From a virus, in the IMG/VR virus record IMGVR_UViG_3300023296_000874, positions 31,594 to 95,593 of that record: DNA of 64,000 nt; one strand, given 5' to 3'. Within the stretch, counting starts at the first letter, position 1; every line of letters starts with the position of its first letter. Under the pieces are notes generated by a model, which worked only from the letters and a program-made list of their open reading frames with translations, made no database searches and was not told the DNA's origin. The translations under genes and the position numbers were made by a program. Below are positions 1,175 to 58,240 of this stretch, piece by piece.

Positions 1175-1205
1175 CAACGCCTTTCGTAGCGTGAAAGTCA
1201 GAGCC
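1175..1205 (-). promoter_or_regulatory. Phage promoter-like motif (plus strand CAACG-N17-GTCAGAGCC; minus strand CTCTGAC-N17-CGTTG), 23 nt upstream of the gene starting at 1152
   Basis: Member of a motif family with at least 19 copies. Confidence 0.45.
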
Positions 1206-1704
1206 TTTCGGAATAGATTGCGACACTGGCTCGAACAGCGTCTTCTTCGTCCGCCCGTCGGAGGGTGAGCAGTAGGCGGACGTGACCATCTACATGCCCT
1301 TTGAATCCACTTGCCTGATCGGCTTCTTTCCGGGCACTGATGAGCGCGTTAGCCATCCCACGGGAGGTCTCGCCACGCAAGGAGCGTATAGAGATCATGA
1401 GGACTGAGTGGGCTCCACGCACCCGTTCGAACTTACCGATACTGAATCCCTTCAGGTTACTTGAGTCCCACCCGTCGATGAGTAGCTCCCTTCGGTCCAC
1501 GGATATCAGGGAGATAGCCCATGAGGTGTGAGTGTACGCTTCGAGCTTCGCCCACACCTCAACCTGACGCAGCAACCCGCTGAGCTTCAGGGCAGTCAAG
1601 GGCGGCGTGAACACAAGGTCTGGGAACTCTGGAGGCGGGACGGGCTCGCCGTCTTCCCCCATCAGCTCTTCGAGCCTCGCATGTTGCTCTGATTCTTCAG
1701 GCAT
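1198..1704 (-). CDS. Hypothetical protein, paralog A of 1712..2191. Start revised to MPEESEQHARLEELMGEDG
   Basis: N-terminal and core similarity to the adjacent ORF (ARLEELMGED...P.PP.FPDL vs SRLDELMGDT.DPHPFPDL, ...GWD). Confidence 0.55.
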   Translation of the reverse strand: MPEESEQHARLEELMGEDGEPVPPPEFPDLVFTPPLTALKLSGLLRQVEVWAKLEAYTHTSWAISLISVDRRELLIDGWDSSNLKGFSIGKFERVRGAHSVLMISIRSLRGETSRGMANALISARKEADQASGFKGHVDGHVRLLLTLRRADEEDAVRASVAIYSERL

Positions 1705-1711
1705 GTGGTCC

Positions 1712-2191
1712 TCAATAGAGTGGCTTGGATCCGAAGCCCACGAAAGCGGGGCGCACTTCTTCCTCGTCCCTTGCCACGTAGAGCAGGAGTCGGGGGTGTG
1801 GATACTTCTCAAGGTCTGGGGGCTTGTCTCTCTTGGACTTAGCCGTCAGGGCTCGCACGGCGGCTTTCGCCTTGGGGTCCTTGTAGAGGCTGGTGCGAAC
1901 GGCAAGATAGAACCGGTTGGCTGCCGATGACCATGCCAGCTCACCAAGGCCGGGGAGGGTCAGTAGGCGTTCCTCATCCCATCCCGCCACTACCAACTCA
2001 CGGCGAATCGCGTTGGGCATTCCCACCTTGAAGTTCAAGCTACGTCCAGTCCAGAGCTCCACCTCGTAAAGGATCGCAAGGAGCTGCTCGATGGTCATGG
2101 GAGACGTGTAGCGAAGATCGGGGAACGGATGGGGATCCGGGGTGTCGCCCATCAACTCGTCGAGTCGACTATGCTGTTCGGTCTCTTCCAT
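1712..2191 (-). CDS. Hypothetical protein, paralog B. Possibly leaderless (CGTTG -10-like element ends 7 nt before the ATG)
   Basis: 159-aa ORF. MEETEQHSRLDELMGD N-terminal motif. A promoter-like motif sits immediately upstream. Confidence 0.6.
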   Translation of the reverse strand: MEETEQHSRLDELMGDTPDPHPFPDLRYTSPMTIEQLLAILYEVELWTGRSLNFKVGMPNAIRRELVVAGWDEERLLTLPGLGELAWSSAANRFYLAVRTSLYKDPKAKAAVRALTAKSKRDKPPDLEKYPHPRLLLYVARDEEEVRPAFVGFGSKPLY

Positions 2192-2198
2192 GTGAGCT

Positions 2199-2229
2199 CA
2201 ACGTGCCTACTTGCACGGAACTCAGGCAG
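2199..2229 (-). promoter_or_regulatory. Promoter-like motif, weaker upstream half (CAACG-N17-CTCAGGCAG); -10-like element ends 7 nt before ATG 2191 (leaderless configuration?)
   Basis: Motif family. Confidence 0.3.
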
Positions 2230-2647
2230 CCATTTCATCTCTTGCTTCGGCGTAGTGGAGCGGGCACTCAACCACGCCATACACGGGGTCGCACCGGACG
2301 TAGCCCATGTCGGAGGTCGGGTTGATGGTCAGCGACACGCCGAACAGGGTGCTTGCCGCCGCGTCCGTGAACTCTACGAACCGGTTCTCGTCAGAGTTGA
2401 CGAGATCGCGATACATGCGGGAGCTGAGCTCCACGGAGTCCACACGGAGGTCCCACCGCTCAATCTGAGCGAATGCGGTAGCCATCACCTCAACGGTCAG
2501 AACATCAAAGACCATCGGGTCAGGACGGCGCTCCAACTCCCGAATCAGGGCGCGGCGGGTGTCGCTCATTGGAGGCTGGTTCAGGTATACGGCAGGGGAA
2601 GGGACCGTCTGCCGTACTTGAACATCTATGCTGACTACAGAGTACAT
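2222..2647 (-). CDS. Hypothetical protein (true start may be the internal MSDTRRAL near 2569)
   Basis: ORF track; no recognisable domain. Confidence 0.45.
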   Translation of the reverse strand: MYSVVSIDVQVRQTVPSPAVYLNQPPMSDTRRALIRELERRPDPMVFDVLTVEVMATAFAQIERWDLRVDSVELSSRMYRDLVNSDENRFVEFTDAAASTLFGVSLTINPTSDMGYVRCDPVYGVVECPLHYAEARDEMAA

Positions 2648-2686
2648 GAGCCCTCGAACAGCCCATGCACCCCGCAGCCCGCAAAT

Positions 2687-4639: not shown

Positions 4640-5278
4640 TCACTTCGCACCTCCACTCAGAGCCTGCCGAATGGCCTGGCTGTCGAGATCCTCTTCGAGG
4701 AGCATCTCGAGGCGCTGCATGTTGCCGGGGTTGCCGAGGATCGCGTTGGCGGCTGCTGCCGCTCCAGTACCACAAGCCTCGTTCAACCGGCCACGGAGGG
4801 CGTACTCATCGTCGCACCCGTCGAGCAACTCCTCGAGCTTGGCGCTCTTCATGGAGGCACGGGCAAGCTGAGCTGCGGTACGTCCGAAGGCTTGGCGCAC
4901 TTGCTCACGGATGAGCTCGCGCATCTCGGTCTTGATCCACTGTTCGTTCGCGATCGTGCTCAAGGAACCCCACCGGCTACCGATCTCTCGGGTCAGCTTG
5001 TCCTTGGCAGCCTTTTCGGCATCCTTCGTGGCTTGGGAGATCGCGTCGGTGGTGGCGGTGTTGATCCGCTTGGTGGCTTCGGCAACGGCCTCCGTGCGGA
5101 GGGTGCGAAGCTCGGAGCGCGCCTCGGAGCTCTCAGCGAGGGTTTCGTTGCGGTAGTCCGCACCGATGTCCTTCTTGAGTTCGTCCCAGAACTGGCGGCT
5201 CTTACAGAGGTTGGCAGAGATGTCGGCGGCAGCGAGAGTTTCGATCTTGTCGCTGTCGAGGGTGAAGTTGGCGTCCAT
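4640..5278 (-). CDS. Hypothetical coiled-coil protein
   Basis: 212-aa ORF. Promoter-motif copy 5409-5438 lies ~130 nt upstream. Confidence 0.6.
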   Translation of the reverse strand: MDANFTLDSDKIETLAAADISANLCKSRQFWDELKKDIGADYRNETLAESSEARSELRTLRTEAVAEATKRINTATTDAISQATKDAEKAAKDKLTREIGSRWGSLSTIANEQWIKTEMRELIREQVRQAFGRTAAQLARASMKSAKLEELLDGCDDEYALRGRLNEACGTGAAAAANAILGNPGNMQRLEMLLEEDLDSQAIRQALSGGAK

Positions 5279-5438: not shown

Positions 5439-5461
5439 CCGTTCACGAAGTTCGAACTCTT

Positions 5462-5716: not shown

Positions 5717-5938
5717 CTATCCCTCAGCCACCGCGCCACTGATGAGCACGATGGGACACAGGTTGCACTGCTTGATGTTCACTATGTCACCTTCAGGCCC
5801 GAAGTTGATCTCCCAGCGAGTGCCCGTGGGCTCCGCTACGACACGACGTTGGCTGATGGCGCTGAAGTGGTGTACGCCGGTCCGCTTGAGTTCTTCGGCG
5901 GTCCAGTGATGGCCGCATCCTTGGCATGTAGTGGTCAT
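5717..5938 (-). CDS. Small zinc-ribbon-like protein (CQGCGHHW ... CNLCP)
   Basis: Two CxxC pairs. Confidence 0.5.
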   Translation of the reverse strand: MTTTCQGCGHHWTAEELKRTGVHHFSAISQRRVVAEPTGTRWEINFGPEGDIVNIKQCNLCPIVLISGAVAEG

Positions 5939-5956
5939 GGTCTCTCAAACAAGCTG

Positions 5957-6229
5957 TCAGGCTGAAGGTTGCGTGCCGCCCGGCTTTTCTTGCTCCACCA
6001 GCTTGTAGTGCTTCATGTTCGTCATGAAGTTGTTGTAGAGAGCCCAGTTGTCCTGCTTGGACTTGATAAGGGTTCGCTCTTTCATCCGCTTGATCAAACC
6101 GGCAATCTCGGGCCTTGTGAGTGGCCGGTCGAAGTGCGTCTGCGCCGCCATGACGTTTCCGAAGATGATGGCGTTGATTGAGCGTGCTGATTTGAACGGC
6201 GACGGGCCGCTGATCCAGAAGGTTTTCAT
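5957..6229 (-). CDS. Hypothetical protein
   Basis: ORF track. Confidence 0.45.
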   Translation of the reverse strand: MKTFWISGPSPFKSARSINAIIFGNVMAAQTHFDRPLTRPEIAGLIKRMKERTLIKSKQDNWALYNNFMTNMKHYKLVEQEKPGGTQPSA

Positions 6230-6307: not shown

Positions 6308-8059
6308 TCAGGCTGCAGCCGCCGCCACACACTGCTCGGGGTACCACTTGCGGAGCGTGTTGAGGAACTGGTAGCTGAGTTGGTCAGCGGGGCGTCGGCT
6401 CTTCGCCATGCCGGAGGCAACCACCGCAGCGGCAATCCGCTCCACGTCGGCTTCCGTCCACGCGCCTTGGGTCACGAGGGTCACCCAGATGCTGTGGTTG
6501 ATGCCGCGCCTGTAGGGGTTCTCACCCTTCAGGAGGTAGGAGGCAGAGGCCGGGTCAACAGCCGCAACGGGCGGGGCAGCAACCGGCTTGTCGCCGTCCA
6601 CTTCCTTGTAGAGGCCCGCGTAGTCCTTGAGGTTGTTGTAGAACTGGTACCCGATCTGGTCAGCGGGTCGCCGGGTCTTGATCGTGCCCGCGTCAATCAA
6701 CTGCTGAGTCACCGCGTCCACGTCGTCCCGTGTCCACGTACCCAGCGCAACCAACGCAGCCCAGATGCTGAAGTTGATGCCCCGTCGGTACGGGCTCGCT
6801 CCACAGAAGGCGTAGCGCACGGGCGTCGGCACGTTCACCGCGAGGCCTGTGATCACGGTCGCACGGGTCACCGCTGCTGCAACCACGTCACCCGGCATCA
6901 CCGGGTTCTCTTCGGCACGCTCGATGGCCTTGTAGCCACGGGCGGTCTCGATGAACCCCCAGGCAATGCCGTCAGCCGGGCGTCGGGATTTGATCGCGCC
7001 GCTGTCGAGCAGTGCGTCCACCGTGGTCAGGAGGTCGTTGAAGTCGAAGGTGCCACGGGTCACGAGGGCGTCGTAGATGGGGTGGCTACCTGCCCAATGC
7101 TTGTACGGGTTCGGGATGCCTACGAAGCGGTAGCGTGTGCGCGCAGCGTGCTGAACTGCGCGGCCCCCTCGGGTATTACCGTTGGGGGCCGCTGTCTCTC
7201 CGATTGCTTCCTTCTCAAGTGCCACTGCCACGAAGGTTCCAGCTACCTCTTCGGGGCTGCGGCGGGAGGCGAACTTGCCTTGATCCATCAGTCGCCCGGT
7301 GATCACCACAATCTCCCGCATCGTCACTGGGTTCCCGATGGCGTTCAGGGTGTCCCACAACACGTAGCACGAGCCTCGCTGGAAGGGGTTGTCGCCCTTC
7401 ACGAGGTACACCGGGCCGACGGAGGTGCTTGTGCGCTTCCGCTTGCTCGGCTTGGCTCCGTCCCTGGTCACCGCGAGGTACTCGGTGATGAGGGCGTGGA
7501 GGCTCTTCACGCGGTAGTGGATGGTCTCCTTGCGCTTGCCGATGATCCGGCTGATGTCTGCCGGGCGGTAGCCCATGGTCCGCAGGATGAAGGTGGGGAG
7601 GAACGCGGGCTTGCGCTCCGCGATGTACCGAATGAGATCCGATTCCACCACCTCTGCCGGAATGCTGAGCTCCGAGAGGTTGCTGGTCTGCTGCAACCGG
7701 TCGAGGTCCACCGTGCCGCGAGCGGGCTCGGAGTCGTCCGAGGGCACCGAGAGGCTCATGGCGTTGGTGTTGGCGTCCCGGTTGTCCTTCTTCCAGCCGT
7801 TCACGAGGCAGTTCCGGATGGTCGTACCGAGGTACGAACGGAACTGACGCGGAGTCATCAGCCCCGCATCTACCTTCTCCTTCACACGGGGGAAGAAGTT
7901 GGACGCCATGCAGTGAATGATGATGTCCTGGAACTTGTCGTCGATGTCCTCTTCGGGAACCTTCTGTCCACGCAGTCCACCGATGATGTACTTGCGGAAT
8001 GCCATGAGCTGGTTGACGTCCGTCGGGACGAAGTCCGTCTCGGTGTGTGTGCGTGCCAT
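6308..8059 (-). CDS. ECF-type sigma factor domain (regions 2 and 4) fused to a ~370-aa C-terminal extension of four tandem ~65-aa repeats
   Basis: Region 2.x-like FRSYLGTTIRNCLVNGWKKDNRD (cf. FxxWLxxIARNxxIDxxRK). Region 4-like LPTFILRTMGYRPADISRIIGKRKETIHYRVKSLHAL. Four repeats NP[YF][RQ]RG[IS]...W..LV..G.WT..DV......L..SG..K[ST]RRPADQ..YQF. Own promoter-motif copy 36 nt upstream. Confidence 0.7.
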   Translation of the reverse strand: MARTHTETDFVPTDVNQLMAFRKYIIGGLRGQKVPEEDIDDKFQDIIIHCMASNFFPRVKEKVDAGLMTPRQFRSYLGTTIRNCLVNGWKKDNRDANTNAMSLSVPSDDSEPARGTVDLDRLQQTSNLSELSIPAEVVESDLIRYIAERKPAFLPTFILRTMGYRPADISRIIGKRKETIHYRVKSLHALITEYLAVTRDGAKPSKRKRTSTSVGPVYLVKGDNPFQRGSCYVLWDTLNAIGNPVTMREIVVITGRLMDQGKFASRRSPEEVAGTFVAVALEKEAIGETAAPNGNTRGGRAVQHAARTRYRFVGIPNPYKHWAGSHPIYDALVTRGTFDFNDLLTTVDALLDSGAIKSRRPADGIAWGFIETARGYKAIERAEENPVMPGDVVAAAVTRATVITGLAVNVPTPVRYAFCGASPYRRGINFSIWAALVALGTWTRDDVDAVTQQLIDAGTIKTRRPADQIGYQFYNNLKDYAGLYKEVDGDKPVAAPPVAAVDPASASYLLKGENPYRRGINHSIWVTLVTQGAWTEADVERIAAAVVASGMAKSRRPADQLSYQFLNTLRKWYPEQCVAAAAA

Positions 8060-8094: not shown

Positions 8095-8126
8095 TAACGA
8101 ACTGAGCCTACGAGAAACTCAGAGCC
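8095..8126 (-). promoter_or_regulatory. Promoter-like motif TAACG-N18-CTCAGAGCC, 36 nt upstream of the sigma-factor gene
   Basis: Motif family. Confidence 0.45.
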
Positions 8127-8462: not shown

Positions 8463-9344
8463 TCAGTCGTTCTCCACTACGTTGAGCCTGCCCAGCGCAG
8501 CCTTCTTCTTACCCTCTTCGAGGATCCGCGCCTTTTCGATGTTGGCGGGAGCTGCGTAGCAGTAGGTGCAGGCGTGTGGGCAGGCAAGTGATGTCTGGGT
8601 AGCTACCTCAATGGCGGCTGAGCAACGGCAGTCGTCAACCTTGGGGTGCATCAGCCCCAGGTTGTCTATACCATAGATCTGGTCGATCCAGTAGGCGTTG
8701 ACACACGTAGCCGGTCCAAAGTTGTCCGCAACTCCCCTGAAGGAGTCGTCGTCCCAGCACCCGAGGAGCATCATGTCGTGCTTGTCGAGGATGGCGCACA
8801 TCTGCCGCAAGATCTCCCGGCGCTCGTTTTCGTCACGGGTCTCGGGGATCGCGGTCTCGCTGTGGAGGAAGCTGAAGTAGCACTCCCGCACGCCCAGGTC
8901 GGCCATGAATTGAGCCACCCGCTCGAACTCGCTCCAGTCAGCAGGCACGGGGGAGTAGCGCCACTGCATCTTCTCGACGCCGTACTCTGCCACCATGTCA
9001 GCGAAGCACTGGAGCTGAATGTCCAGCGCAGGCACCTTGAGCTCGGTGGAGGGGTCGCCGCAGATGGTCATCGCAAAGAACTGTCGGTAGTTCGCGTCCA
9101 GCTCGGCGCGTCGTGGGTTCTTGAGGAAGCGTCGGTAGTCCTTGGAGTACCAGAACAGGGAGTGCATGTCCTCGGGAGCGAGGCTCCACCGTGCGGGCAT
9201 CCCAGTCTGAGGGTGTGGCGCGTCGATGTACCCACGGTCCAACCACCGGAAGAATCGCTTCATCCAGAAGGCGGGGATGTCGGTGTTGCGGCTCAAAGTG
9301 ATGGGGAATCCCCACTCGAGCGGCTTCAGGATTTCGGTTGACAT
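8463..9344 (-). CDS. Hypothetical protein with N-terminal TDIPAFW motif and C-terminal CxxxCxxC cluster (putative Fe-S protein; DUF1848-like?, tentative)
   Basis: LSRNTDIPAFWMKRFF near the N-terminus. ACPHACTYCYA near the C-terminus. Confidence 0.55.
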   Translation of the reverse strand: MSTEILKPLEWGFPITLSRNTDIPAFWMKRFFRWLDRGYIDAPHPQTGMPARWSLAPEDMHSLFWYSKDYRRFLKNPRRAELDANYRQFFAMTICGDPSTELKVPALDIQLQCFADMVAEYGVEKMQWRYSPVPADWSEFERVAQFMADLGVRECYFSFLHSETAIPETRDENERREILRQMCAILDKHDMMLLGCWDDDSFRGVADNFGPATCVNAYWIDQIYGIDNLGLMHPKVDDCRCSAAIEVATQTSLACPHACTYCYAAPANIEKARILEEGKKKAALGRLNVVEND

Positions 9345-9365: not shown

Positions 9366-9395
9366 TAACGTACCCAAGGGGGAGGTACTCAGAGG
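9366..9395 (-). promoter_or_regulatory. Promoter-like motif TAACG-N17-CTCAGAGG, 22 nt upstream of ATG 9344, followed by RBS GGAGGTG
   Basis: Motif family. Confidence 0.5.
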
Positions 9396-11702: not shown

Positions 11703-12098
11703 CTACGCTTCAAGAAGCAGCTCGATCCGGTCCACGTCAGTTTCGTTCCACGGGTTGATGTCCACGTCTTGAATCAGACGCCACCTACGCGGAGGCCAGT
11801 TGGTGGCGACACGTCCATAGTCGCAGCCACCTTCATCGTTGCGCTCAAACGTGTAGATGTTCCGGGCGGTTACGCACGCTCCAGTCCGATAGGACCCAGA
11901 GGGAGCCACGTGAGTCACAATGCCGTAGCCTTCACCGTATCCGGTCCCCATGAACCACATCTGTCCGGGGCGGGGTAGGTCGGTGAACTCAGGAGCGCGG
12001 GAGCAGAGCTCGAACCTCTCTTGAGGCATGGCGTCCCGGTGCTTGTTGCAGAACACACAGGTCCAATCTGTCGATCGGATGTGGTGGGGTCCTCTCAT
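11703..12098 (-). CDS. Hypothetical protein; C-terminus ...VDRIELLLEA (recurrent terminal motif)
   Basis: ORF track. Confidence 0.5.
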   Translation of the reverse strand: MRGPHHIRSTDWTCVFCNKHRDAMPQERFELCSRAPEFTDLPRPGQMWFMGTGYGEGYGIVTHVAPSGSYRTGACVTARNIYTFERNDEGGCDYGRVATNWPPRRWRLIQDVDINPWNETDVDRIELLLEA

Positions 12099-13498: not shown

Positions 13499-13729
13499 TC
13501 AAACCTCCATCAACAGTTCAAGACGGTCGACGGGGTCAGCCCACCCTATGAACTCCCAGCCGTGCTCATAGTTCCCCATGGGCAGGTCACCTACGCACCA
13601 GTAGTCACCGTTCGCATCCCTAATCCGAGCACCGAAGTTCTCGGGATAGGTCAACACGACTGTTCCGGTAAGGTCGTGCCATGGTCCCACGAAGTGAATG
13701 ATCATGCCCACCTCAGGTCCACGCTCCAT
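13499..13729 (-). CDS. Hypothetical protein; C-terminus ...VDRLELLMEV (recurrent terminal motif)
   Basis: ORF track. Confidence 0.5.
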   Translation of the reverse strand: MERGPEVGMIIHFVGPWHDLTGTVVLTYPENFGARIRDANGDYWCVGDLPMGNYEHGWEFIGWADPVDRLELLMEV

Positions 13730-14207: not shown

Positions 14208-14501
14208 TCAGAACTCGTTCCCGAATCGGCTCCGTCGGTTGCGTTGAGCCTCTTCGTGGTCACGGGCGCGCTCTGCCTTCTCTTCAGCGGCTTCGGCTGC
14301 AGCCGCTTCGACGGCCTCAAGGCCGGGCCAGTTGAGGATCTGCCCGGTAGCAGCGTTGATCTCCAGCTCGAGGTAGTCACCGCCACCGATGCCAATGCCA
14401 GAGGGCACGTAGCCGTCATGGTCACTGCCATCGGGCCAGGTGATGCCGCACATGTCGCTCACCTTGCCGTTCACATGAATGGTCTTGATCTCGTCGCTCA
14501 T
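14208..14501 (-). CDS. Hypothetical protein
   Basis: ORF track. Confidence 0.45.
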   Translation of the reverse strand: MSDEIKTIHVNGKVSDMCGITWPDGSDHDGYVPSGIGIGGGDYLELEINAATGQILNWPGLEAVEAAAAEAAEEKAERARDHEEAQRNRRSRFGNEF

Positions 14502-15229
14502 CCTCTCACCTCAGCGGGCAGTCCTGCGGGGATGCCCAGAAGGTCGCAGAGCTCACTCTCGGAGCTCACGACGTTGACGCCCCATGCTGGAAACACGTTG
14601 CGAAGGAAGTTGTTGTGGTGGATGCGCTTGAAGTCACCCACCAGGAAGCTGGGCACCACAACCTGATAGCCCATGGCGGTCGCCCGCTGCACGATGGAGC
14701 TCACCACGATGTGCGTCACGAAGCCGCCCACAACCACGCACACCTGGAGCGGGTGAAGGCCTTCATGCAAGCCCTCGAGCTGCTCCTTCAGGTCGGTCTC
14801 GAAGAAGCTGTCGAAGGTGGTCTTGGCGATTCGGTAGTCGATGTAGGGCGCAACGGCGTCCACCACTTCGGCCTCGAAGGAGTTCTCGTCAGCGTGCTCG
14901 CCGTACACGGCAAGCTCCTTCATCTGGAGCGGGTCGTTCCAGTTGTGGCTGTCGATGGTGGCGAGCTGGGGAATGTCCGCACGCTTCAACGTCTGCGCCC
15001 ACACCCCGAGGTGGTCACCCATCAGAGCGAGGTTGCGCTCACCGATGTGGAGCGCCGGGTAGCCGTCACCGCGCATCTTGCTCTTCTCAGAGTCAGGGAT
15101 CTCAGCAGCGGTGCAAGCGAACGCCTTGGTGGCATCTGCCCAAACCATGATGGTCATCTGCGGGCTCACCGGCCCACCCATGGAGGGGATGTTGAGGTCG
15201 GGGAAGTACTCAGCGTTGGGCGTGGGCAT
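14498..15229 (-). CDS. Isochorismatase-fold-like protein (tentative; catalytic Cys not evident at the expected position)
   Basis: LQVCVVVGGFVTHIVVSSIVQRATAMGYQVVV resembles the isochorismatase/cysteine-hydrolase core strand-helix. Confidence 0.35.
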   Translation of the reverse strand: MPTPNAEYFPDLNIPSMGGPVSPQMTIMVWADATKAFACTAAEIPDSEKSKMRGDGYPALHIGERNLALMGDHLGVWAQTLKRADIPQLATIDSHNWNDPLQMKELAVYGEHADENSFEAEVVDAVAPYIDYRIAKTTFDSFFETDLKEQLEGLHEGLHPLQVCVVVGGFVTHIVVSSIVQRATAMGYQVVVPSFLVGDFKRIHHNNFLRNVFPAWGVNVVSSESELCDLLGIPAGLPAEVRG

Positions 15230-18730: not shown

Positions 18731-18988
18731 TCAATCCTCGAGTAGTAGCGCGAGCCTGTCCACTTCTTGTACAGGTGGTTCAACAACCTCAGGAGCCAGT
18801 TCGCGCGGTTCGTAATAGCCCGTCGTCCCGTCGTCATGACGGACGGTGAACACCGCGCCGTGCCCGTTCTTCAATCGGGTGATAATTCCGTACACGCCCC
18901 ACTTCCTCGAGAGGAGTGCTTCGGGCATCCAGTCATTCGATATGGACTCAGGGCGCACGGTGAGCACGCGGTCGTTCACGGCAATCAT
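18731..18988 (-). CDS. Hypothetical protein; C-terminus ...VDRLALLLED (recurrent terminal motif)
   Basis: ORF track. Confidence 0.5.
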   Translation of the reverse strand: MIAVNDRVLTVRPESISNDWMPEALLSRKWGVYGIITRLKNGHGAVFTVRHDDGTTGYYEPRELAPEVVEPPVQEVDRLALLLED

Positions 18989-19407
18989 ACTCCAATCTCC
19001 AGGTATGGGTTCTGAGGATCATTCGTGTTGGTGATGGCGATGATGCCGTCCAAATCTCTGAAAATGGTAGCCATCACTTCGTCGTAGGTGTTCCGGTTGA
19101 TGATCTGGTCCCTGTGCTTGAGGCACTGACCCTCCGCGAGGAGGATGTCAGGGGTGTACCGCTCCATGGTGGAGGGCCTCCTGTCCAAGACGAGGAGCAG
19201 CCTCTTGTCCTCGTTGTTCGCCAGTTCGCGCCACCGAAGCAGGTACGCTGACCGGACCTGGTACATGGACAGCAACGAGGTCATTTCGACGTTGAGGTCT
19301 GCCCTTGCAGCCTCGGTAGCTGCAAGGGTTTGCATGGCTCCTTCTGACACCCCCTCTTCCGGAGGGGGGTCAATCTCAAGTAGGAGGTGAAGCCTATCGA
19401 GAGCCAC
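18985..19407 (-). CDS. Hypothetical protein. Probable GTG start giving N-terminus VALDRLHLLLEIDPPPEEG (motif shared with 1198/1712 paralogs); alternative ATG at 19335
   Basis: The ORF-track N-terminus overlaps prs. GTG at 19405-19407 immediately precedes the DRLHLLLE motif. Confidence 0.4.
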   Translation of the reverse strand: MALDRLHLLLEIDPPPEEGVSEGAMQTLAATEAARADLNVEMTSLLSMYQVRSAYLLRWRELANNEDKRLLLVLDRRPSTMERYTPDILLAEGQCLKHRDQIINRNTYDEVMATIFRDLDGIIAITNTNDPQNPYLEIGV

Positions 19408-21645: not shown

Positions 21646-22155
21646 TCAGATGTGTCGCATGGTGTCAGTGTTGCGGCGCTTGGCTTCCGCCTCGTTGAAA
21701 TCCCGGTTGCGCCAACTGAACTCGTAGATGCTGAGGCGGCGCTTCTTCTCGTTCTGTCCATCAGGCTGGATGGTCACCGTCTTGTTGGTGATGCCCGTGA
21801 TGGTGCCGATGTAGCTGAGGTTGTAGCTGTGGTACTCGGCTCGGTCACCCACATGGAAGGTGCGGCGGTACTCAGCGGCCCCGTCTACGCGGTTGGAGTT
21901 GATGCCGTGTAGGCGGATGAAGGTGTACTCGTCCACGTAGGCGTGATGGCCTTCAGCCACTTCACCCACGATCATCACCCCACCGCTGCGCCGATTCTTG
22001 GCCCGCACGTTGTAGATCTGGTACAGGCCGAGCTTGCGGCTGACGGTCAACATGCGGTGAGCGGGGTCGGCGCACTCTGCTGCTTCGGTGCGTCCGGCAA
22101 CCTCGTTGTCGCGGTCGTCGTCATCATCCATCAGCAGTGCAAGTCGGTCGATCAT
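21646..22155 (-). CDS. Hypothetical protein; N-terminus MIDRLALLMDDDDD (recurrent terminal motif)
   Basis: ORF track; promoter-motif copy 20 nt upstream. Confidence 0.55.
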   Translation of the reverse strand: MIDRLALLMDDDDDRDNEVAGRTEAAECADPAHRMLTVSRKLGLYQIYNVRAKNRRSGGVMIVGEVAEGHHAYVDEYTFIRLHGINSNRVDGAAEYRRTFHVGDRAEYHSYNLSYIGTITGITNKTVTIQPDGQNEKKRRLSIYEFSWRNRDFNEAEAKRRNTDTMRHI

Positions 22156-24949: not shown

Positions 24950-25006
24950 GTAAGACTCCGTAGTAGTTTCTCGCCCTCAAACGGCGGCAGAGGGCGAGAA
25001 GTGCAA

Positions 25007-32540: not shown

Positions 32541-32637
32541 CTTGTGTCTCCGTGATTGGGCTTGTCGCCCTTGGGTTCATACCCTCCTACTGTTCACGGT
32601 TGAAGGCGGGATAGGTTCCCGCCGACGCACATACTTT

Positions 32638-34283: not shown

Positions 34284-34316
34284 TTTCACAGGACGGTGAT
34301 CGGGTTTCAATAGTGC

Positions 34317-34348
34317 AACGAGTTCAACCGGCGTCGAACTCAGAGCGT
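34317..34348 (-). promoter_or_regulatory. Promoter-like motif CAACG-N18-CTCAGAGCG upstream of clpP
   Basis: Motif family. Confidence 0.45.
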
Positions 34349-36169: not shown

Positions 36170-36212
36170 GTACTCCCCTTCTAAGCACTCAACGTGGTCA
36201 GGTACGGAATAC

Positions 36213-41216: not shown

Positions 41217-41783
41217 ATGGACCGCATTGCATTTGCTCAGAAGATCAGCCTACTCGCCGACAAGGTGGCGCTGGGCAGCAAGGAGCCTCTCGAGCTCGTA
41301 CCGGAGGGAGGCAAGACCCCTTCGAAGAAGGAGATCTCGAAGGCGTGGCCGAACCTCACCTACAAGGGCGACACCATCCACCCTATGAAGAGTGGAAACC
41401 TCTACGAGAAGTGGCAGGACAAGGCTGAGGACAAGCTCCGAGACGATGAGGGCATCGACAGCTTCCAAGAGGTGTATCTCGGGTACGACCCCAAGAAGGA
41501 CCTCTTCGTCATGGGTTGGGACCTGTGGCCCGGTGAGGAAGAGTACGACGAGGATGACGAGTACGGAGAAGACGAGGATGGCTACGGACGCTACTCCTCA
41601 GAGGGACCTCGGAAGGCTGCCGTCAAGAAGCAGGCGAACGACATGGGCTACGCACTCGCCACCATCAAGGATGGCAGGGTGAAGAGCGTTGAGGACTACT
41701 GGCCCGGAGGTGGCTTCTACCGCCACGGGCTCAAGATTGTTCACTCCCACTACAACGGAATCCTCGACCTCAGGCTCGACTGA
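41217..41783 (+). CDS. Hypothetical acidic protein (plus-strand island)
   Basis: ORF track; first gene after the divergent region. Confidence 0.55.
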   Translation: MDRIAFAQKISLLADKVALGSKEPLELVPEGGKTPSKKEISKAWPNLTYKGDTIHPMKSGNLYEKWQDKAEDKLRDDEGIDSFQEVYLGYDPKKDLFVMGWDLWPGEEEYDEDDEYGEDEDGYGRYSSEGPRKAAVKKQANDMGYALATIKDGRVKSVEDYWPGGGFYRHGLKIVHSHYNGILDLRLD

Positions 41784-42682
41784 TGCACCCAACCCTGAAC
41801 AGACTTGCACTCCTTGAGGTCCGGCTCCGCACGGCTGAGATCAGGGAGGCGGTCCGCCATGTGGTAGCCAAGAGCTTCTACCGTAGGCGGGAGGCATCTG
41901 TTCGACACCTCACTCCGGAGGTGCTGACTGCCTTTGCAGAGGGATTCTGTGAGCAGCCACACAACGTCCGTGAGGCAGGCATTGGCGACATCGTCAAGAA
42001 GCTCTCCAAGCTGGTGAAGCTGTTCCGTCGCGCGCCCAAGCTGCTCGAGCGGATGAAAGAGTTCCTGGGAGATCTTGACCCTCGCACGATCCTGAAGTGG
42101 GCGAAGGACGGTGTACGTGCTGCCGGGCGGAAGATTCAGAAGGCCGTCAAGTCATGGCCGCTGGCCATGTTCTTCTTCCCCAAGAGCAAGCTTCCGTCAC
42201 TGAGCGACATGATCGCCAACATCGTCAACGGCACCCGGATTGGAGACCTGCTCAAGAAGGTACAGAGCAAGGCGGTGTCGGTAGATGTATGGCTTGAAAA
42301 GCACCCTATCATCAAGGGGATGTCGAAGCCGGTGCTTGCGGCAGCATTCATCTTCATCTGGATCAACGTCTCTGAGATCTCGTGGGACATGGAGAGCATC
42401 TTCCGTGGCTTCACGGGGCAGATGCCCTTCAGCGAGGTACTGACCTCACTGCCTGAGAGTGCAATCGGCCTGGTGTTTGCCAGCATGGGGATTGGATACG
42501 GCTTCATGGGACCGGTTCTCATGGCGCGCATCATTTGGCTTGTGGCCTCGAACTACGTCGAGTACGTCCCCGGACGTGGCTTCAAGGTGTTCTGGGACGT
42601 CATGGGCAAGTACACACCGGAGAGCGGTACGTTCCTCGACCGGACGCCTGACGTACAGTTCTTCAAGTGGAGCCCCTCATGA
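41783..42682 (+). CDS. Membrane-associated hypothetical protein
   Basis: C-terminal hydrophobic helices AAAFIFIWINV, IGLVFASMGIGYGFMGPVLMARIIWLV. Confidence 0.55.
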   Translation: MHPTLNRLALLEVRLRTAEIREAVRHVVAKSFYRRREASVRHLTPEVLTAFAEGFCEQPHNVREAGIGDIVKKLSKLVKLFRRAPKLLERMKEFLGDLDPRTILKWAKDGVRAAGRKIQKAVKSWPLAMFFFPKSKLPSLSDMIANIVNGTRIGDLLKKVQSKAVSVDVWLEKHPIIKGMSKPVLAAAFIFIWINVSEISWDMESIFRGFTGQMPFSEVLTSLPESAIGLVFASMGIGYGFMGPVLMARIIWLVASNYVEYVPGRGFKVFWDVMGKYTPESGTFLDRTPDVQFFKWSPS

Positions 42683-44431: not shown

Positions 44432-44709
44432 GCCTGAAGGTTCGTGACGCCGATGAGCTCCCCGAGCAGCGTGCGGCTGAGAGGTTTGCCAGGCTTGTCC
44501 TCGTACACCTCCCGAACCACGATGCGCTGTGGCGTGCTCTTGGGCACGGACCCCCAGCCCTTGGTGTTGGGAGTGACGTCTGCTGCTGCTTCGTCCCGCA
44601 TCTTGCAGTAGACGGCTTGCAGGGTGAGGTCACTGGCATGTCGCATGGTGCCGAAGACGGGCGTCTTGGACGTCAGCCGGTACAGCACATAGATGTATCC
44701 GTTCATCGC
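44428..44709 (-). CDS. Hypothetical protein (start MNGYIYVLY; weak GIY-YIG-like N-terminus)
   Basis: Convergent with the plus-strand island. The ORF-track N-terminal extension is unlikely. Confidence 0.4.
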   Translation of the reverse strand, partial: AMNGYIYVLYRLTSKTPVFGTMRHASDLTLQAVYCKMRDEAAADVTPNTKGWGSVPKSTPQRIVVREVYEDKPGKPLSRTLLGELIGVTNLQA

Positions 44710-44894
44710 ACAACCTCGAGCGTGTAAGCGGTGAGGCCGAAGCCGCAACCGACGTGATCCTCGGCCCAGGCAATCGCCTGCTCGATGCGGGTGAAGGTCT
44801 TGCGGCGCTTGGGGTCGTCGGTGCGCTGCACACATTGGTGCTCTTCACTGAAGCCCGCGATGTCTTTGCCGCTTTGGTCTTTGAGGTAGTGCAT
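44703..44894 (-). CDS. Hypothetical small protein (start revised to MHYLKD; the ORF-track start overlaps the promoter motif)
   Basis: Promoter-motif copy 44913-44943 immediately upstream. Confidence 0.4.
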   Translation of the reverse strand: MHYLKDQSGKDIAGFSEEHQCVQRTDDPKRRKTFTRIEQAIAWAEDHVGCGFGLTAYTLEVVR

Positions 44895-45336: not shown

Positions 45337-45647
45337 TCCGTGCGGCTGTAATCAAGGGTCTCTGACCGACGAAGGCACCCCGCTCACGTCCAACCCCATT
45401 CTTTGCACGGAGGAGGGAAGGTGTGAGCGGGGTGCCCAGTCGAAAGATCGCCAGTCCACTCGCTCCCTTGCCTTGGGAGTCCGCTTCGCATACAGGGGGC
45501 TGGCATGGCTCCCATCTAACCGCCCATGGTGCTCAGGCCCCTCTCGAGGCGCTGATCCATAGAGTGCATAACACTTGCCGGGTTCGAACCGGCCACTCAC
45601 AGGCGCTGGCAAAAGTCTTCGGGGCTTCTCAGCCCCTTACATCTCTA
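45337..45647 (-). ncRNA. Candidate structured leader or small RNA: T-arm-like hairpin (minus strand GCCGG-TTCGAAC-CCGGC), GGGGCT-GAGA-AGCCCC hairpin, and a perfect 12-bp inverted repeat with 35-nt loop
   Basis: 340-nt non-coding gap in a dense genome. Promoter-motif copy at 45648-45678 points into it. No complete tRNA cloverleaf could be folded. Confidence 0.3.
45376..45434. repeat. Perfect 12-bp inverted repeat CACCCCGCTCAC ... GTGAGCGGGGTG with a 35-nt spacer
   Basis: Arms 45376-45387 and 45423-45434 are exact reverse complements. Confidence 0.7.
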
Positions 45648-45678
45648 CAACGAGGCGAGAGCGGCAGCACTCAGAGAC
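45648..45678 (-). promoter_or_regulatory. Promoter-like motif CAACG-N17-CTCAGAGAC reading into the 340-nt non-coding region
   Basis: Motif family; shares extended CACTCAGAGACTAT with the 44913 copy. Confidence 0.45.
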
Positions 45679-48723: not shown

Positions 48724-48833
48724 GTTGGAATCTCCAGATTCGTTGTCTGTTAAGTACTCAGGCCCGTACCTTGGACCACATCACTCAGACACCGGAATCA
48801 TGCAGAAACCTAAAATCTACACCTCGAACTCGC

Positions 48834-49658: not shown

Positions 49659-49737
49659 GCTCCGTCAGACAAGCGACAGCCCCCAAAGTCGTGAAACTCA
49701 AGGGGCTGCCGGGGAGGCCTCAAAGGCTTATGGAGGG

Positions 49738-51324: not shown

Positions 51325-51492
51325 TTTGGAGGCCCTCCTGTCGGGGGAGAAACCCGACGTGCCGTGTTGATTGTATGTGTTGTCTGCACTGGCCCAACCC
51401 CGTCCCGCTTGGCTTGCGCCTTGCGGGTACGGGGGAGGGGGTCCTGGTACCGGTCTCCGTCCGCCGCCCGAAGGCGGCTTCAGGAGGCAGCA

Positions 51493-51834
51493 TCAGCCAA
51501 CGGCAACCTGCAGCACGATCTCGCCGCGCTCGGTCACCTCGGAGAGAACCGTGTGGCCCTGCATCGCGAGGTTGTAGCGGACGTGGCGGGCCATGGAGTT
51601 GCGGTACCACTCGCCCACAACGTAGGCGATGTCCGAGTCCATGGAGGACGCCGAGGGGTTGTCGAGGTTCAGCTTGAGGGCGTTGCCGTAGCGGTTGAAC
51701 TTCCGGTCGGAGAAGGTCAGGACGGTGTCGCCACCCTCCTTGCTCTCGCTGAACGCGATGCCGCGATCGTTGAGCTCGTCCTTGAGGGAGTCTGCGCTGC
51801 CGAAGTGGCCCTGAACGGTGATCTTGTGGCTCAT
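51493..51834 (-). CDS. Hypothetical protein
   Basis: ORF track; promoter-motif copy 60 nt upstream. Confidence 0.5.
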   Translation of the reverse strand: MSHKITVQGHFGSADSLKDELNDRGIAFSESKEGGDTVLTFSDRKFNRYGNALKLNLDNPSASSMDSDIAYVVGEWYRNSMARHVRYNLAMQGHTVLSEVTERGEIVLQVAVG

Positions 51835-51943: not shown

Positions 51944-52150
51944 TCAGTTGACGCCGGGGATGCTGAGGCCGACGTTCACGGGCTGCGGGGTTCCCTGCAG
52001 CTCATCGTGGCCGGTCACCTGGCCCAACGAACGGGTGAGGGTGAGGATCTTGGCGCAGGCCTGGGTCTGCTGGGTGCCCTCGGTCTTGAGGTCGGTCGTA
52101 ACCGTGCCCTTGTCGCCAATGCGGATCTCGTAGATGCTTCGCTCGCTCAT
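51944..52150 (-). CDS. Hypothetical small protein
   Basis: ORF track; promoter-motif copy 62 nt upstream. Confidence 0.45.
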   Translation of the reverse strand: MSERSIYEIRIGDKGTVTTDLKTEGTQQTQACAKILTLTRSLGQVTGHDELQGTPQPVNVGLSIPGVN

Positions 52151-52211: not shown

Positions 52212-52242
52212 TAACGCGCTCACCTCGTGGAGAGTTAGAGAG
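52212..52242 (-). promoter_or_regulatory. Promoter-like motif TAACG-N17-GTTAGAGAG (palindromic variant)
   Basis: Motif family. Confidence 0.45.
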
Positions 52243-56001: not shown

Positions 56002-56049
56002 GGGGCGTCCTTGCTTGTAGGTTCATCATGTGCCCTCAAACGGCGAGGT

Positions 56050-56469
56050 TCACTCGCTTCCACCGTTCTTGTTTGCCACGCGGACCGCAATATATCCATC
56101 CCGCCACAGGTTGATGAGTTCCGTCAGCTCCGGGGAGTGCTCGTCGTTGGCGTCCACTATGCGGAGGAGGTCGCAGGCGTTGTTCCGCAGGTCCTGACAC
56201 TTCTTCTCGTGCCAGCCAAAGCAGCCCGGCCCCCAGAGATGACATCGCCTGTTCGGGACTCGGTCCAGACACTGCTTCGGGTAGTAGCGCACCTGAAGCA
56301 GCAGTGGAACCGCGTACCTGTCAAGGGCGAGGCGTATGTCATTGACGAGGACCAAACTGACGAGACTATCGACCCACTCAGGAGCGTCGGTGTACGCTAC
56401 CTGTGCTATCTTGTGTACCTTCTCGAACTCGTCGTAGACCGAGAAGCGTTGCGTGATGCTGAACTTCAT
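56050..56469 (-). CDS. Hypothetical protein
   Basis: ORF track. Confidence 0.5.
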   Translation of the reverse strand: MKFSITQRFSVYDEFEKVHKIAQVAYTDAPEWVDSLVSLVLVNDIRLALDRYAVPLLLQVRYYPKQCLDRVPNRRCHLWGPGCFGWHEKKCQDLRNNACDLLRIVDANDEHSPELTELINLWRDGYIAVRVANKNGGSE

Positions 56470-56548
56470 GCTCCATTTTACACTGGGATTAGGGCTCGAG
56501 CCGTGAAACAGAGGTCACATCAGTTCCATGACCCACGGAGGTCAATGA

Positions 56549-57442
56549 ATGTCTGAAGCCAATTCCACTGCGTTCCACCACAGCCCTGACGGCCACTGGG
56601 AATTCCACGACGGACGTGCGGTCTTTGAGAAGCTGCCCGCCAACCTGTACTCCCTGTCTACGGGGCGGTTCGGAGCTATTCATCTCGTACCCGCCACCAT
56701 GGAGGTAGACGAGGTGGTGCCCTTGCCGAACCCTCAGGCGCTCCGCGCCAAGACTCTCGCATCTCGCTTCCTTTCAGGGGAGTTCGATGAGAGCCTCAAG
56801 AGCATGGGCCTTCTGAAGAAGATGGCGATGTTGCTGTGGGGTGTGCCGGGGACAAGCAAGTCGGTGACGATCTTCGAGATCACCGGAGACGCCATCAGGA
56901 AGGGATGGATCGTCATCCGTGCCACCACGAACGTCGACCTACTGGTGGACGCCTTGCGCGCCATCCGTGCGGTTGAGCCGGATCGTGGCATCATGGTGAT
57001 CTGGGAAGAGTTCGAGGACGTAGTGACGCACCGGGAGGCTTCCTTGTTGGAGCTGCTCGACGGTGGGAACCAGATCCCCGGCGTCTTCTACATCATGACC
57101 ACCAACTACATCAAGATGATCCCGCCCCGGATCTTCCTCCGCATGAGGCGCATCCCCTTCCAGGTGGAGTTCATGTACCCCGGCGACGATGAGCGTCGTG
57201 CCTTCTTCAATGCGAAGATCCCCACCGCTCGCGCGGCAGAGATCGACGTAGAGGATTGGGTGATCAAGACGAAGGGCTTCAGCCTGGATCAATGCGCCCA
57301 GGTGATCCTCGCGGTGTTTGCTTTCCAGAGCACCATCGAGGCCGTCATTGAGGATCTCGCCTTGCGCTTGGCTGCCGTCGGTGCGGAAGATCCCGAAGCT
57401 GACGATGCCGAGGATGATGAGTACTACGAAGAGGATGAATGA
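56549..57442 (+). CDS. AAA+ ATPase with atypical Walker A (GVPGTSKS), acidic C-terminal tail
   Basis: Walker A LWGVPGTSKS, Walker B IMVIWEEFED, sensor-1-like MTTNY. Lone plus-strand gene, divergent from 56050..56469. Confidence 0.65.
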   Translation: MSEANSTAFHHSPDGHWEFHDGRAVFEKLPANLYSLSTGRFGAIHLVPATMEVDEVVPLPNPQALRAKTLASRFLSGEFDESLKSMGLLKKMAMLLWGVPGTSKSVTIFEITGDAIRKGWIVIRATTNVDLLVDALRAIRAVEPDRGIMVIWEEFEDVVTHREASLLELLDGGNQIPGVFYIMTTNYIKMIPPRIFLRMRRIPFQVEFMYPGDDERRAFFNAKIPTARAAEIDVEDWVIKTKGFSLDQCAQVILAVFAFQSTIEAVIEDLALRLAAVGAEDPEADDAEDDEYYEEDE

Positions 57443-57449
57443 GGGCCGG

Positions 57450-58187
57450 TTAGGAGTCCTTACGCTCCACCGGGAGTGTACTCCTGATGCCCCATGTGTT
57501 CTTCGCCCAGAAGGTCTCGAGTGCGAAGTAGCCGCCGAGCATGGTGATCTGGTACGTGAGAACGGGCACCCAAGGCACCGAGCCGAGTAGGGCGGTAAAC
57601 ACTCCCAGCATCACCACCGCGCTTGTTGTCCGGTACGTCAGGGCCTTGGCGGCGCTGCGCTTGGTCTCTACCTGATCGTCCTCGGTGATGCCGAAGTTGC
57701 TGTCGTGCCACAGGCGCTCATGCACCAGGCTGAAGAAGGTCATCATCACCGAGTAGCCGGTGAGCAGCCACAGGCTCAGTCCGAGCTTCCAAAGCACAAG
57801 GGAAAATACTCCGAGTGCGAGGGTGCGGTAGAGCAGCATCTTGGCTGCCGTCCGGTAGCCGGTGCTCATGGCGCTGCGGTCCGGTTCCCAAGGCACACGT
57901 CCACGGCACCGGTCGTAGGTGCGGAAGCCGAAGATGGCGATGGGGTACACGATGGGCTCACCGTGTAGGAGCAGCACGATGGGGATGAGCTCGGGGAGGC
58001 CGACGTTCCAGAGGATGATGGGGATCACCACGTCCTCGAACAGTTCCCACACCACGGCGAAGACGAAGAAGCGGGGGCCTTGGCTCTTGAGCAGCTTCTT
58101 GAGCTCGCGCCAAGTTTCGAAGATGTTGACCTTCTCCCAGATCTCTCCGGCAGCCCAGCACCATGCACGTCGTAGATGTTTCAGCAC
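57450..58187 (-). CDS. Polytopic membrane protein with two DUF2061-like repeats (KxLxYRT...LG). Start revised to a GTG with RBS GGAGG; the ORF-track TTG start lies upstream of the promoter motif
   Basis: AAKMLLYRTLALGVFSLVLWKLG and AAKALTYRTTSAVVMLGVFTALLG. Multiple TM helices. Confidence 0.55.
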   Translation of the reverse strand: MLKHLRRAWCWAAGEIWEKVNIFETWRELKKLLKSQGPRFFVFAVVWELFEDVVIPIILWNVGLPELIPIVLLLHGEPIVYPIAIFGFRTYDRCRGRVPWEPDRSAMSTGYRTAAKMLLYRTLALGVFSLVLWKLGLSLWLLTGYSVMMTFFSLVHERLWHDSNFGITEDDQVETKRSAAKALTYRTTSAVVMLGVFTALLGSVPWVPVLTYQITMLGGYFALETFWAKNTWGIRSTLPVERKDS

Positions 58188-58210
58188 TTCTGAACCTCCG
58201 TGTTGTACTG

Positions 58211-58240
58211 GAAACGCATCCAGTGTCCGGAAACTCAGAG
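58211..58240 (-). promoter_or_regulatory. Promoter-like motif AAACG-N17-CTCAGAGG upstream of the DUF2061-like membrane protein gene
   Basis: Motif family. Confidence 0.45.

Follow-up and report, generated by a model that had tools for sequence, protein, structure and literature searches.

What reads the short two-box motif that recurs in front of the minus-strand genes of an uncultured phage? The stretch analysed here (hereafter the window) is 64,000 nt long and covers positions 31,594 to 95,593 of the IMG/VR virus record IMGVR_UViG_3300023296_000874. An earlier note, made by eye from the letters alone, had described at least 19 copies of the motif and interpreted them as promoters that depend on a phage sigma factor encoded at 6308..8059. 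We found that the motif is real and solid, and evidence from sequence, structure prediction and comparison of relatives supports that interpretation. At a probability of about 0.72, the copies are phage-specific promoters read by the host core RNA polymerase together with the phage's own sigma factor, which would be similar to the extracytoplasmic function (ECF) type. This is most likely a new example of a known phage strategy, the use of a phage-encoded sigma factor for promoter takeover. We found no earlier description of the motif in the searchable literature.

Nineteen co-oriented copies of a bipartite motif

The window has a GC content of ~60% and carries ~90 genes, nearly all on the minus strand. 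On that strand, the aligned sites give the consensus AAAnnC-TCT[G/A]A[G/C]-TT, then a spacer, then CGTT[G/A]. Regular expressions, shuffled sequences and a position weight matrix (PWM) agree on 19 copies, all on the minus strand. The strict expression CTCT[GA]A[GC]-N16-18-CGTT matched 14 times on the minus strand and the loose expression TCT[GA]A[GC]-N16-18-[CT]GTT 18 times, and neither matched the plus strand. In 300 dinucleotide-preserving shuffles of the window, the chance expectation was a mean of 0.20 (maximum 3) for the strict form and 0.98 (maximum 5) for the loose form. When the window was scanned with the PWM, scores were bimodal and the copies, intergenic and in one orientation, were cleanly separated from noise: 18 minus-strand sites scored 20.9-29.7 bits and one (2199-2227) scored 14.2, while the next minus-strand sites reached at most 12 bits. 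The best antisense site scored just 10.8 bits, which bears out the single orientation described before. The accepted copies are as follows (distances are to the start codon of the downstream gene).

1175..1203, minus strand: TCTGAC-N17-CGTTG; 23 nt upstream of TTG 1152 (gene 907-1152, with a ribosome-binding site); 29.7 bits
2199..2227, minus strand: CCTGAG-N17-CGTTG, the weakest accepted copy; ATG 2191 exactly 8 nt after CGTT, a leaderless candidate; 14.2 bits
5409..5437, minus strand: TCTAAC-N17-CGTTAGAGG, dyad subtype; 131 nt upstream of gene 4640-5278; 22.4 bits
8095..8124, minus strand: TCTGAG-N18-CGTTA; 36 nt upstream of the sigma-like gene, an autoregulatory position; 28.0 bits
9366..9394, minus strand: TCTGAG-N17-CGTTA; 22 nt upstream of DUF1848 gene 8463-9344; 28.6 bits
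21605..21633, minus strand: TCTGAC-N17-CGTTG; 24 nt upstream of RlaP-like gene 20394-21581; 27.4 bits
22176..22204, minus strand: TCTGAG-N17-CGTTG; 21 nt upstream of gene 21646-22155; 23.9 bits
23435..23462, minus strand: TCTAAC-N16-TGTTG; 21 nt upstream of gene 22761-23414; 21.7 bits
23884..23912, minus strand: TCTGAG-N17-CGTTA; 35 nt upstream of gene 23472-23849; 24.6 bits
30443..30471, minus strand: TCTAAC-N17-CGTTG; 28 nt upstream of NAPRTase-like gene 28844-30415; 24.9 bits
33537..33565, minus strand: TCTGAG-N17-CGTTG; 40 nt upstream of ATG 33497 (DUF3228 gene 32853-33497); 28.5 bits
34316..34345, minus strand: TCTGAG-N18-CGTTG; upstream of the ClpP gene; 25.4 bits
35793..35821, minus strand: TCTAAC-N17-CGTTA; 50 nt upstream of NUDIX/NrtR-like gene 35084-35743; 20.9 bits
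36190..36218, minus strand: TCTGAG-N17-CGTTG; 21 nt upstream of ATG 36169 (gene 35834-36169); 25.7 bits
44913..44941, minus strand: TCTGAG-N17-CGTTG; 19 nt upstream of ATG 44894 (gene 44703-44894); 28.4 bits
45648..45676, minus strand: TCTGAG-N17-CGTTG; followed by a 306-nt structured stretch without a convincing open reading frame (ORF); 28.7 bits
51904..51932, minus strand: TCTAAC-N17-CGTTAGAGG, dyad subtype; 70 nt upstream of gene 51493-51834; 22.3 bits
52212..52240, minus strand: TCTAAC-N17-CGTTAGAGG, dyad subtype; 62 nt upstream of gene 51944-52150; 28.0 bits
58212..58240, minus strand: TCTGAG-N17-CGTTT; 25 nt upstream of GTG 58187 (membrane protein gene 57450-58187); 23.0 bits

Thirteen of the start positions listed earlier were exact; three were off by 1 (22175, 34317, 58211) and two by 10 (33527 and 51894, which should read 33537 and 51904). 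The weaker copies proposed near 40010 and 46078 both scored <2 bits and were dropped, as was an additional candidate near 48760-48830 (<2 bits). The strong copy at 36190-36218 had been absent from the list.

Only the two boxes are conserved. Spacer columns are unconserved and the flanks of the window copies are unrelated to each other. Of the 18 copies matched by regular expression, 15 have a 17-bp spacer, two have one of 18 bp and one has 16 bp. Two short conserved boxes held at a fixed distance (±1) by unconserved sequence are the layout of a promoter, and the "rigid 17-bp spacer" architecture proposed before thus stands as 17 ± 1 bp, with all copies co-oriented and at a tight distance from a start codon. 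The downstream box is CGTT in 18/19 copies and TGTT in one; the upstream hexamer is TCTAAC in 6/19, TCTGAG or CCTGAG in 11/19 and TCTGAC in 2/19. The ECF-like content that had been noted therefore holds for the CGT(T) half, whereas AAC is limited to the six copies and the rest read GAG or GAC. Neither box is related to the sigma-70 hexamers TTGACA and TATAAT, as had been stated.

The position of the copies relative to genes is equally regular. All 19 fall in the intergenic share of the window, which is 7.75% in the gene map made here, and at most 5 of the 27 motif bases overlap an upstream stop codon. In 17/19 copies a co-oriented start codon follows 8-70 nt past CGTT, and an ACGGAG/GGAGG ribosome-binding site stands after most copies. 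Of the 38 intergenic gaps that measure 40 nt or more, half hold a copy, and no copy lies in front of a plus-strand gene; the earlier statements on these points were correct. The start-codon corrections that had been drawn from the motif are consistent with its positions. The copy at 34316-34345 places the ClpP start at ATG 34283 and not at TTG 34310, and the start GTG 58187 of the membrane protein gene is the same in the JGI gene call.

The -35 hexamer always includes a stop codon, TGA in TCTGAG and TAA in TCTAAC. In four copies (52212-52240, 36190-36218, 9366-9394 and 2199-2227, the last of which ends gene 2222-2647) this is the real stop codon of the upstream gene, and the gene end and the next promoter thus overlap. 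Across the whole window, sigma-70-type promoter-like sites were not enriched (6 found against ~10.5 expected from shuffles) and intrinsic-terminator-like sites were at or below the shuffle expectation; both were rejected as organising signals.

Two subtypes of the upstream box can be told apart. Positions 4 and 6 of the hexamer covary, giving 6 copies with TCTAAC against 13 with TCTGAG, CCTGAG or TCTGAC (Fisher p = 0.001). An extended -10 element, CGTTAGAG, is confined to the TCTAAC subtype (3/6 versus 0/13; p = 0.02) and is the source of the dyad symmetry (CTCTAAC...GTTAGAG) that had been reported for three copies. The symmetry is indeed present in 3/19 window copies, all of the AAC subtype, and in one copy in the genome flank. 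The suggestion that these palindromic copies might be used in both directions fails, as the PWM has no plus-strand match at those sites.

A divergent sigma-like protein with winged-helix-like repeats

The gene proposed to encode the reader of the motif and its downstream neighbour are:

6308..8059, minus strand: 583-aa divergent, putatively ECF-like sigma gene (AlphaFold models, Foldseek, TIGR02937, family profile)
5957..6229, minus strand: 90-aa gene immediately downstream of the sigma gene, conserved in position and homologous to the C-terminal repeat of the sigma protein

The assignment of 6308..8059 as a phage sigma, made before from the translation, is now supported by a structure model, a sub-threshold TIGR02937 match and a family profile that reaches sigma-70 proteins. 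In the full-length model, a sigma2 domain (~15-92) is joined to a sigma4 domain (135-199) by a disordered linker (92-132), and four winged-helix-like repeats follow (217-289, 309-382, 415-487 and 508-579). AlphaFold confidence (pLDDT) was 69 for the full length and 73.5 for residues 4-200. The models thus have the arrangement that defines ECF sigmas, sigma2 and sigma4 with a linker of fewer than 50 residues (here ~35-40); the further C-terminal repeats lie outside that definition. Foldseek top matches in the Protein Data Bank (PDB) were ECF sigmas, namely Mycobacterium tuberculosis SigH and SigL, Escherichia coli SigE, a Bartonella EcfG-type RpoE, CnrH and AlgU, with probabilities of 0.9-1.0, E-values of 2e-3 to 1e-1 and ~185 aligned columns. 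Foldseek also matched chain F of 9m7y, from a "gp79-dependent RNAP promoter open complex" of a phage, which we take to be the phiEco32 sigma.

Sequence profiles point the same way. TIGR02937 (sigma70-ECF) is the best NCBIfam match, below threshold, for 5/6 family members, at about residues 27-190 and over nearly the whole profile. An hhalign comparison with E. coli RpoE put regions 2 and 4 in register (E 0.037), and one homologue carries the JGI name "sigma24". A profile of the N-terminal 200 residues found just 19 proteins among 1.84 billion representatives: 13 with E ≤1e-10 are the protein's own family, and four of the six weakest (174-282 aa) pass the Pfam gathering scores for Sigma70_r2 or Sigma70_r4_2. 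Against PDB sequences, the family profile gave only a chance match. We conclude from sequence and models that the N-terminal third of the protein is probably a very divergent group-4-like sigma factor.

The C-terminal repeats vary in number from 2 to 4 among homologues. In homologue P0005, an N-terminal extension resembles, by eye, a further copy of the repeat. A gene of ~90 aa also follows the sigma gene in relatives L006 (11810-12094), L008 (11227-11541), L009/L010 (L009 2749-3024) and L012 (11459-11731); the 90-aa proteins are 37-52% identical in alignment. Their family matches residues 216-290 of the sigma family by hhalign (probability 92%, E 6.3e-7). From its position and homology, the 90-aa protein may work with the sigma factor or regulate it. 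Pfam found no anti-sigma domain in the window.

A sigma2-sigma4 core with 2-4 repeats and a free-standing repeat could amount to a new architecture, with either an undescribed built-in control module or extra DNA-reading heads, a proposal that we regard as doubtful but worth stating. Such a module could act, for example, as a partner-switch or decoy in place of an anti-sigma factor, and extra heads could explain the two covarying -35 subtypes and the upstream A-rich tract. If true, it would mean a self-contained, host-independent transcription programme in a globally distributed clade of uncultured jumbo phages, with many leaderless mRNAs.

The motif accompanies the sigma gene in most relatives

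Homologues of the sigma protein were found at ~35-64% identity (43-52% over the full length in the closest set), and remoter ones were found by profile search. Their contigs have a syntenic gene order: a DUF1848 gene, sometimes a small gene, the sigma-like gene and the ~90-aa gene. GC content spans 34-63% among these contigs, two of which measure 246 and 367 kb, and their sources include Antarctic-lake-type, groundwater, marine (Tara) and other samples.

Most relatives carry TCTnAn-N17-CGTT or TCTGACTTT-N16/17-CGTC on the gene-sense strand above the shuffle expectation. Observed and expected counts were 4 and 0.6 in L008, 5 and 0.4 in L009, 5 and 0.24 in L010, and 2 and 0.14 in L011; L094 has several clear copies. 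CGTC replaces CGTT in L011 and L012, and the spacer in L012 is 16 bp. Further copies occur in the 10-kb flanks of the window's own genome. A copy immediately precedes the sigma gene in the window (8095-8124), L008, L009/L010 and L011; in L006, L093 and L094 the motif is found in front of the DUF1848-sigma operon. The autoregulatory arrangement is thus present in the sequence.

In the relatives and the flank taken together, 29 called genes have a motif at most 150 nt upstream, against 8.8 for random starts. Six of the 29 start exactly 8-9 nt past CGTT (0.19 expected), one of them in L004, from the flank of the window's own genome, and all six have the TCTAAC form of the upstream box. In the window, gene 1712-2191 likewise starts 8 nt past CGTT. 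This exact spacing suggests that transcription starts at or next to the start codon, ~8-9 nt past CGTT as at ECF-type promoters, and so implies, from sequence, that copies 8-9 nt before a start codon give leaderless mRNAs.

Three observations concern single lineages. In the marine relative L012, the promoter-like sequence TCTGACTTT-N16-CGTCTA is repeatedly paired with a nearly identical leader, tgtacccactacggagaaac-ATG, in a cassette present at 195-260, 533-600, 2040-2135, 5936-6000 and 6360-6392, and one of these sites is a tandem promoter duplication. In L011 (2028-2137), a near-consensus sigma-70-like TTGACA-N17-TATCAC lies between the motif copy and the sigma start codon. Judged by sequence, it may be the promoter from which sigma expression is started up in that lineage, and no counterpart turned up in the window. 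Sigma residues differ between CGTT and CGTC lineages (e.g., YLGTT versus YLS[RT]T), a covariation that we did not use as evidence, there being just two CGTC lineages and the comparison being phylogenetically confounded.

Proposed mechanism and alternative readers

In the mechanism that we propose, host core RNA polymerase would carry the phage sigma encoded at 6308-8059, whose sigma4-like domain would read the -35 box C-TCT(G/A)A(G/C)-TT and whose sigma2-like domain would read the -10 box CGTT(G/A). With the boxes 17 ± 1 bp apart, initiation would occur ~8-9 nt downstream of CGTT. Such promoters would drive at least 19 transcription units with replication, nucleotide, NAD-salvage and RNA-repair genes, and the copy before the sigma gene would provide positive feedback on sigma expression. 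We infer from the sequence that this sigma reads the motif, the exact start site, and a middle-like temporal class. The link between sigma and motif is drawn on three grounds: (i) both the protein and the motif have ECF-like architecture, (ii) both occur together across phages that differ in base composition and presumably in hosts, and (iii) the motif sits upstream of the sigma gene or operon in several lineages. Positive autoregulation is a hallmark of ECF sigmas (PMC8103513).

Several points weigh against this mechanism. The TIGR02937 score is 11.6 bits for the window protein and 11.6-18.9 in the family, below the cut-off of 42.9; the window protein has no Pfam sigma match at the gathering score and stays below the curated TIGR02937, PF04542 and PF08281 thresholds. 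Foldseek E-values are modest (1e-2 to 1e-3) and TM-scores low, the two domains being oriented differently, and the hhalign probability against RpoE is just 1.4%. L095 has no clear copies of the motif and L006 has few. A sigma gene that depends on its own product needs a start-up signal, and none was found in the window. Also, 13/19 -35 boxes read GAG or GAC, not the AAC that is the ECF hallmark, and the ~84 kb seen belong to a genome of at least 257 kb, in which a second sigma or another factor encoded elsewhere could read the motif.

There are four other possibilities for the motif. It could be a genuine promoter with a different reader, whether an alternative (ECF-type) sigma of the host or another phage sigma whose gene lies beyond the 84 kb, in which case the 6308-8059 protein would serve other targets. 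The AAC...CGTT content resembles cellular ECF promoters such as the EcfG type (AAC at -35, CGTT at -10; PMC8103513), the covarying -35 variants could mean two readers, only about a third of the genome has been seen, and the start-up problem vanishes if a host sigma acts first. We nevertheless hold this to be unlikely: the motif is kept over 34-63% GC, varied habitats and presumably varied hosts while the phage sigma gene is constant at every locus, its place upstream of that gene in several lineages is the classical pattern of ECF autoregulation, and the AAC typically needed by cellular ECF sigmas is missing from 13/19 copies. A promoter for a sigma-independent phage RNA polymerase, single-subunit or of the jumbo-phage multisubunit kind, is much harder to sustain. 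Many jumbo phages are reported to encode their own polymerases (PMC7598289), and a protein of >1610 aa without a Pfam match lies just outside the window. Yet Pfam shows no RNA polymerase domain in the window, nor do the JGI-precomputed Pfam results for the two 10-kb flanks, and two short boxes with a spacer of ±1 are what a cellular-type polymerase with two sigma domains typically recognises. A single-subunit (T7/N4-like) polymerase uses an uninterrupted conserved block of ~20 bp or a hairpin.

An operator for a dimeric DNA-binding regulator, such as a winged-helix protein, appears slightly less probable again. Dyad symmetry in three window copies and one flank copy would suit it, as would the many winged-helix-like domains encoded here, including the sigma C-terminal repeats and the 90-aa paralogue. 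But 16/19 copies are asymmetric (TCTGAG versus CGTTG), and the inverted-repeat half-sites of an operator are lacking from the consensus, where the half-sites differ from each other. All copies keep a single orientation relative to the downstream gene, an exact 8-9 nt start-codon spacing would be meaningless for an operator, and the symmetry is seen only in the AAC subtype, in part since GTT is the complement of AAC. We give least credence to the idea that duplication of an intergenic cassette or repeat left the copies behind, with no role in transcription. The joint recurrence of promoter and conserved leader in L012 is what such a cassette would look like. The window copies share nothing but the conserved boxes, their spacers and flanks being unrelated, which rules out a duplicated cassette, and the boxes are retained among phages with just ~35-52% identity between their sigma proteins and a difference of 29 points in GC content.

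Comparison with known systems

The preferred reading, promoters for the phage's own ECF-like sigma, has its closest functional precedent, by analogy, in gp47 of phage 7-11, along with gp36 of phiEco32. Phages of this type are reportedly podoviruses of ~77 kb. Sigma gp47 uses bipartite late promoters, GTAAtg-N16-aCTA, in which 16 bp separate the two parts and transcripts begin 6-9 bp from the element, and gp36 uses a single-element promoter, tAATGTAtA (PMC8948821). As in those phages, a highly divergent phage sigma would redirect the host core polymerase to promoters unlike TTGACA/TATAAT, and, as in 7-11, the promoter is bipartite with a near-equal spacer (16 bp there, 17 ± 1 bp here). Unlike them, the present system belongs to an uncultured jumbo phage (contigs of 246-367 kb), has a different consensus and a sigma with no detectable sequence similarity to that of any cultured phage, places its putative promoters before replication and metabolism genes and the sigma gene, beyond late genes, and adds 2-4 C-terminal repeats to the sigma.

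In structure and sequence, the closest class is that of cellular ECF (group 4) sigmas with AAC/CGT promoters. These include the EcfG type, GGAAC-N16-17-CGTT, and E. coli SigE, GGAACTT (PMC8103513). Shared features are the predicted sigma2 and sigma4 domains with a linker of <50 aa, a CGT(T) -10 box, a spacer of 16-18 bp, and a motif upstream of the sigma's own gene; at -35, a third of the copies have AAC and then TT. The system here differs in that the 6308-8059 protein falls below the curated ECF/Sigma70 thresholds, the dominant -35 box is TCTGAG, and no anti-sigma gene is recognisable, while a winged-helix-like repeat extension and an adjoining free-standing paralogue are present. It is also encoded by a phage, and the gene set linked to it is large and constitutive-looking, unlike a stress regulon.

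More broadly, T4 gp55/gp33 and SPO1 gp28 and gp33/34 combine a phage specificity subunit with the host catalytic core, and their promoter classes mark gene sets. The division of labour proposed here, with promoter specificity supplied by the phage and the core by the host, would be the same. Late promoters of the T4 type, however, consist of a -10-like element alone, and there is no sigma4 domain in gp55. This phage has a family A DNA polymerase, and none of the markers of the T4-like Group 2 jumbo phages turned up in the window. Jumbo phages that belong to neither Group 1 nor Group 2 have been described as having neither polymerases nor sigma factors (PMC7824862).

For a clade of uncultured jumbo phages (contigs of ~250-370 kb) without a cultured relative, the motif provides a map of transcription units that corrects several start codons and predicts leaderless genes. 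It would pair a sigma factor invisible to Pfam with its probable promoter and place sigma-based takeover in a jumbo lineage with a family A polymerase, outside the T4-like group, in which the sigmas of jumbo phages had been catalogued (PMC7824862). The TCTGAG-N17-CGTT pair differs from the usual AAC/CGT sets, and orthogonal ECF sigma-promoter pairs are useful in synthetic biology. The repeat extension and its stand-alone paralogue also pose a tractable question, how a phage sigma is controlled without an anti-sigma factor.

Source genome and other features of the window

Window proteins have identical counterparts on JGI, ENA and Logan metagenome contigs of up to 257 kb, which identifies the source as an uncultured jumbo phage. 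Megablast with 12 kb of the window found no nucleotide match in 50,697 GenBank phage records, and tblastn found no match to the 583-aa sigma-like protein in the same records; for PolA, tblastn against GenBank phages gave only remote matches of at most 28% identity. An IMG/VR scan with PolA found no relative, and ClpP searched against 185,579 species genomes gave only generic ~55% matches to Clostridia, which are uninformative about the host. The "Moraphage" lineage (PMC12619734) was considered and set aside as a different clade, without tRNA synthetases and with predicted hosts in the Bacteroidota.

Named genes in the window include those for replication (topoisomerase I, family A DNA polymerase, SNF2 and DnaB helicases, a primase zinc finger and HU), ClpP, a class II aminoacyl-tRNA synthetase, nucleotide and NAD metabolism (NAPRTase-like, PRPP synthetase, isochorismatase/nicotinamidase-like and NUDIX enzymes) and RNA repair (a PNK-like protein with AAA_33 and PNK3P domains, and the RlaP-like protein). 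The NAD+ salvage/PRPP set is large (14498-15229, 19394-20380, 28844-30415, 34356-35081 and 35084-35743) and consists of the NAPRTase-like protein, PRPP synthetase, two isochorismatase/nicotinamidase-like proteins and the NUDIX/NrtR-like protein; relatives L012 and L093 have an NAD synthase. It fits recent reports of NAD+ synthesis encoded by jumbo phages (PMC11662467).

Directly downstream of the copy at 45648-45676 lies the stretch of 306 nt at 45337-45642 (minus strand), which has no convincing ORF. It opens with a hairpin, GGGGCUGAGAAGCCCC, followed by CUUUUG, and holds a tRNA T-arm-like sequence, GGCCGGUUCGAACCCGGC, and a stem of ~14-15 bp. Its predicted fold has an energy of -137.8 kcal/mol, compared with -120.1 ± 5.4 for shuffles (z = -3.25). 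The stretch matched no Rfam family at the gathering threshold and gave no tRNA call, and Rfam and ARAGORN found nothing in the window as a whole. On its sequence and position, it is a candidate promoter-driven non-coding RNA.

The motif-free gaps at 24950-25006, 32541-32637, 49659-49737 and 51325-51492 hold GC-rich hairpins without a T-tract (e.g., TTCTCGCCCTC...GAGGGCGAGAA), which may be processing or stability elements or factor-dependent terminators. The adjacent small proteins 2-214 and 218-655 (minus strand) are similar to the ribosomal L7/L12 protein in its C-terminal domain; for 218-655 the likeness comes from Pfam PF00542 (E 6e-9, concatenated query) and a weak JGI flag, and for 2-214 it was seen by eye. 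A peptide, [V/I/L]DR[L/I]xLL[L/M]E, recurs at the extreme C-terminus of small, unrelated ORFs (11703-12098, 13499-13729 and 18731-18988), near the end of 58247-58513, at the N-termini of 21646-22155 and 41783-42682, and internally in 18985-19500, and may be a shared docking tail or degron.

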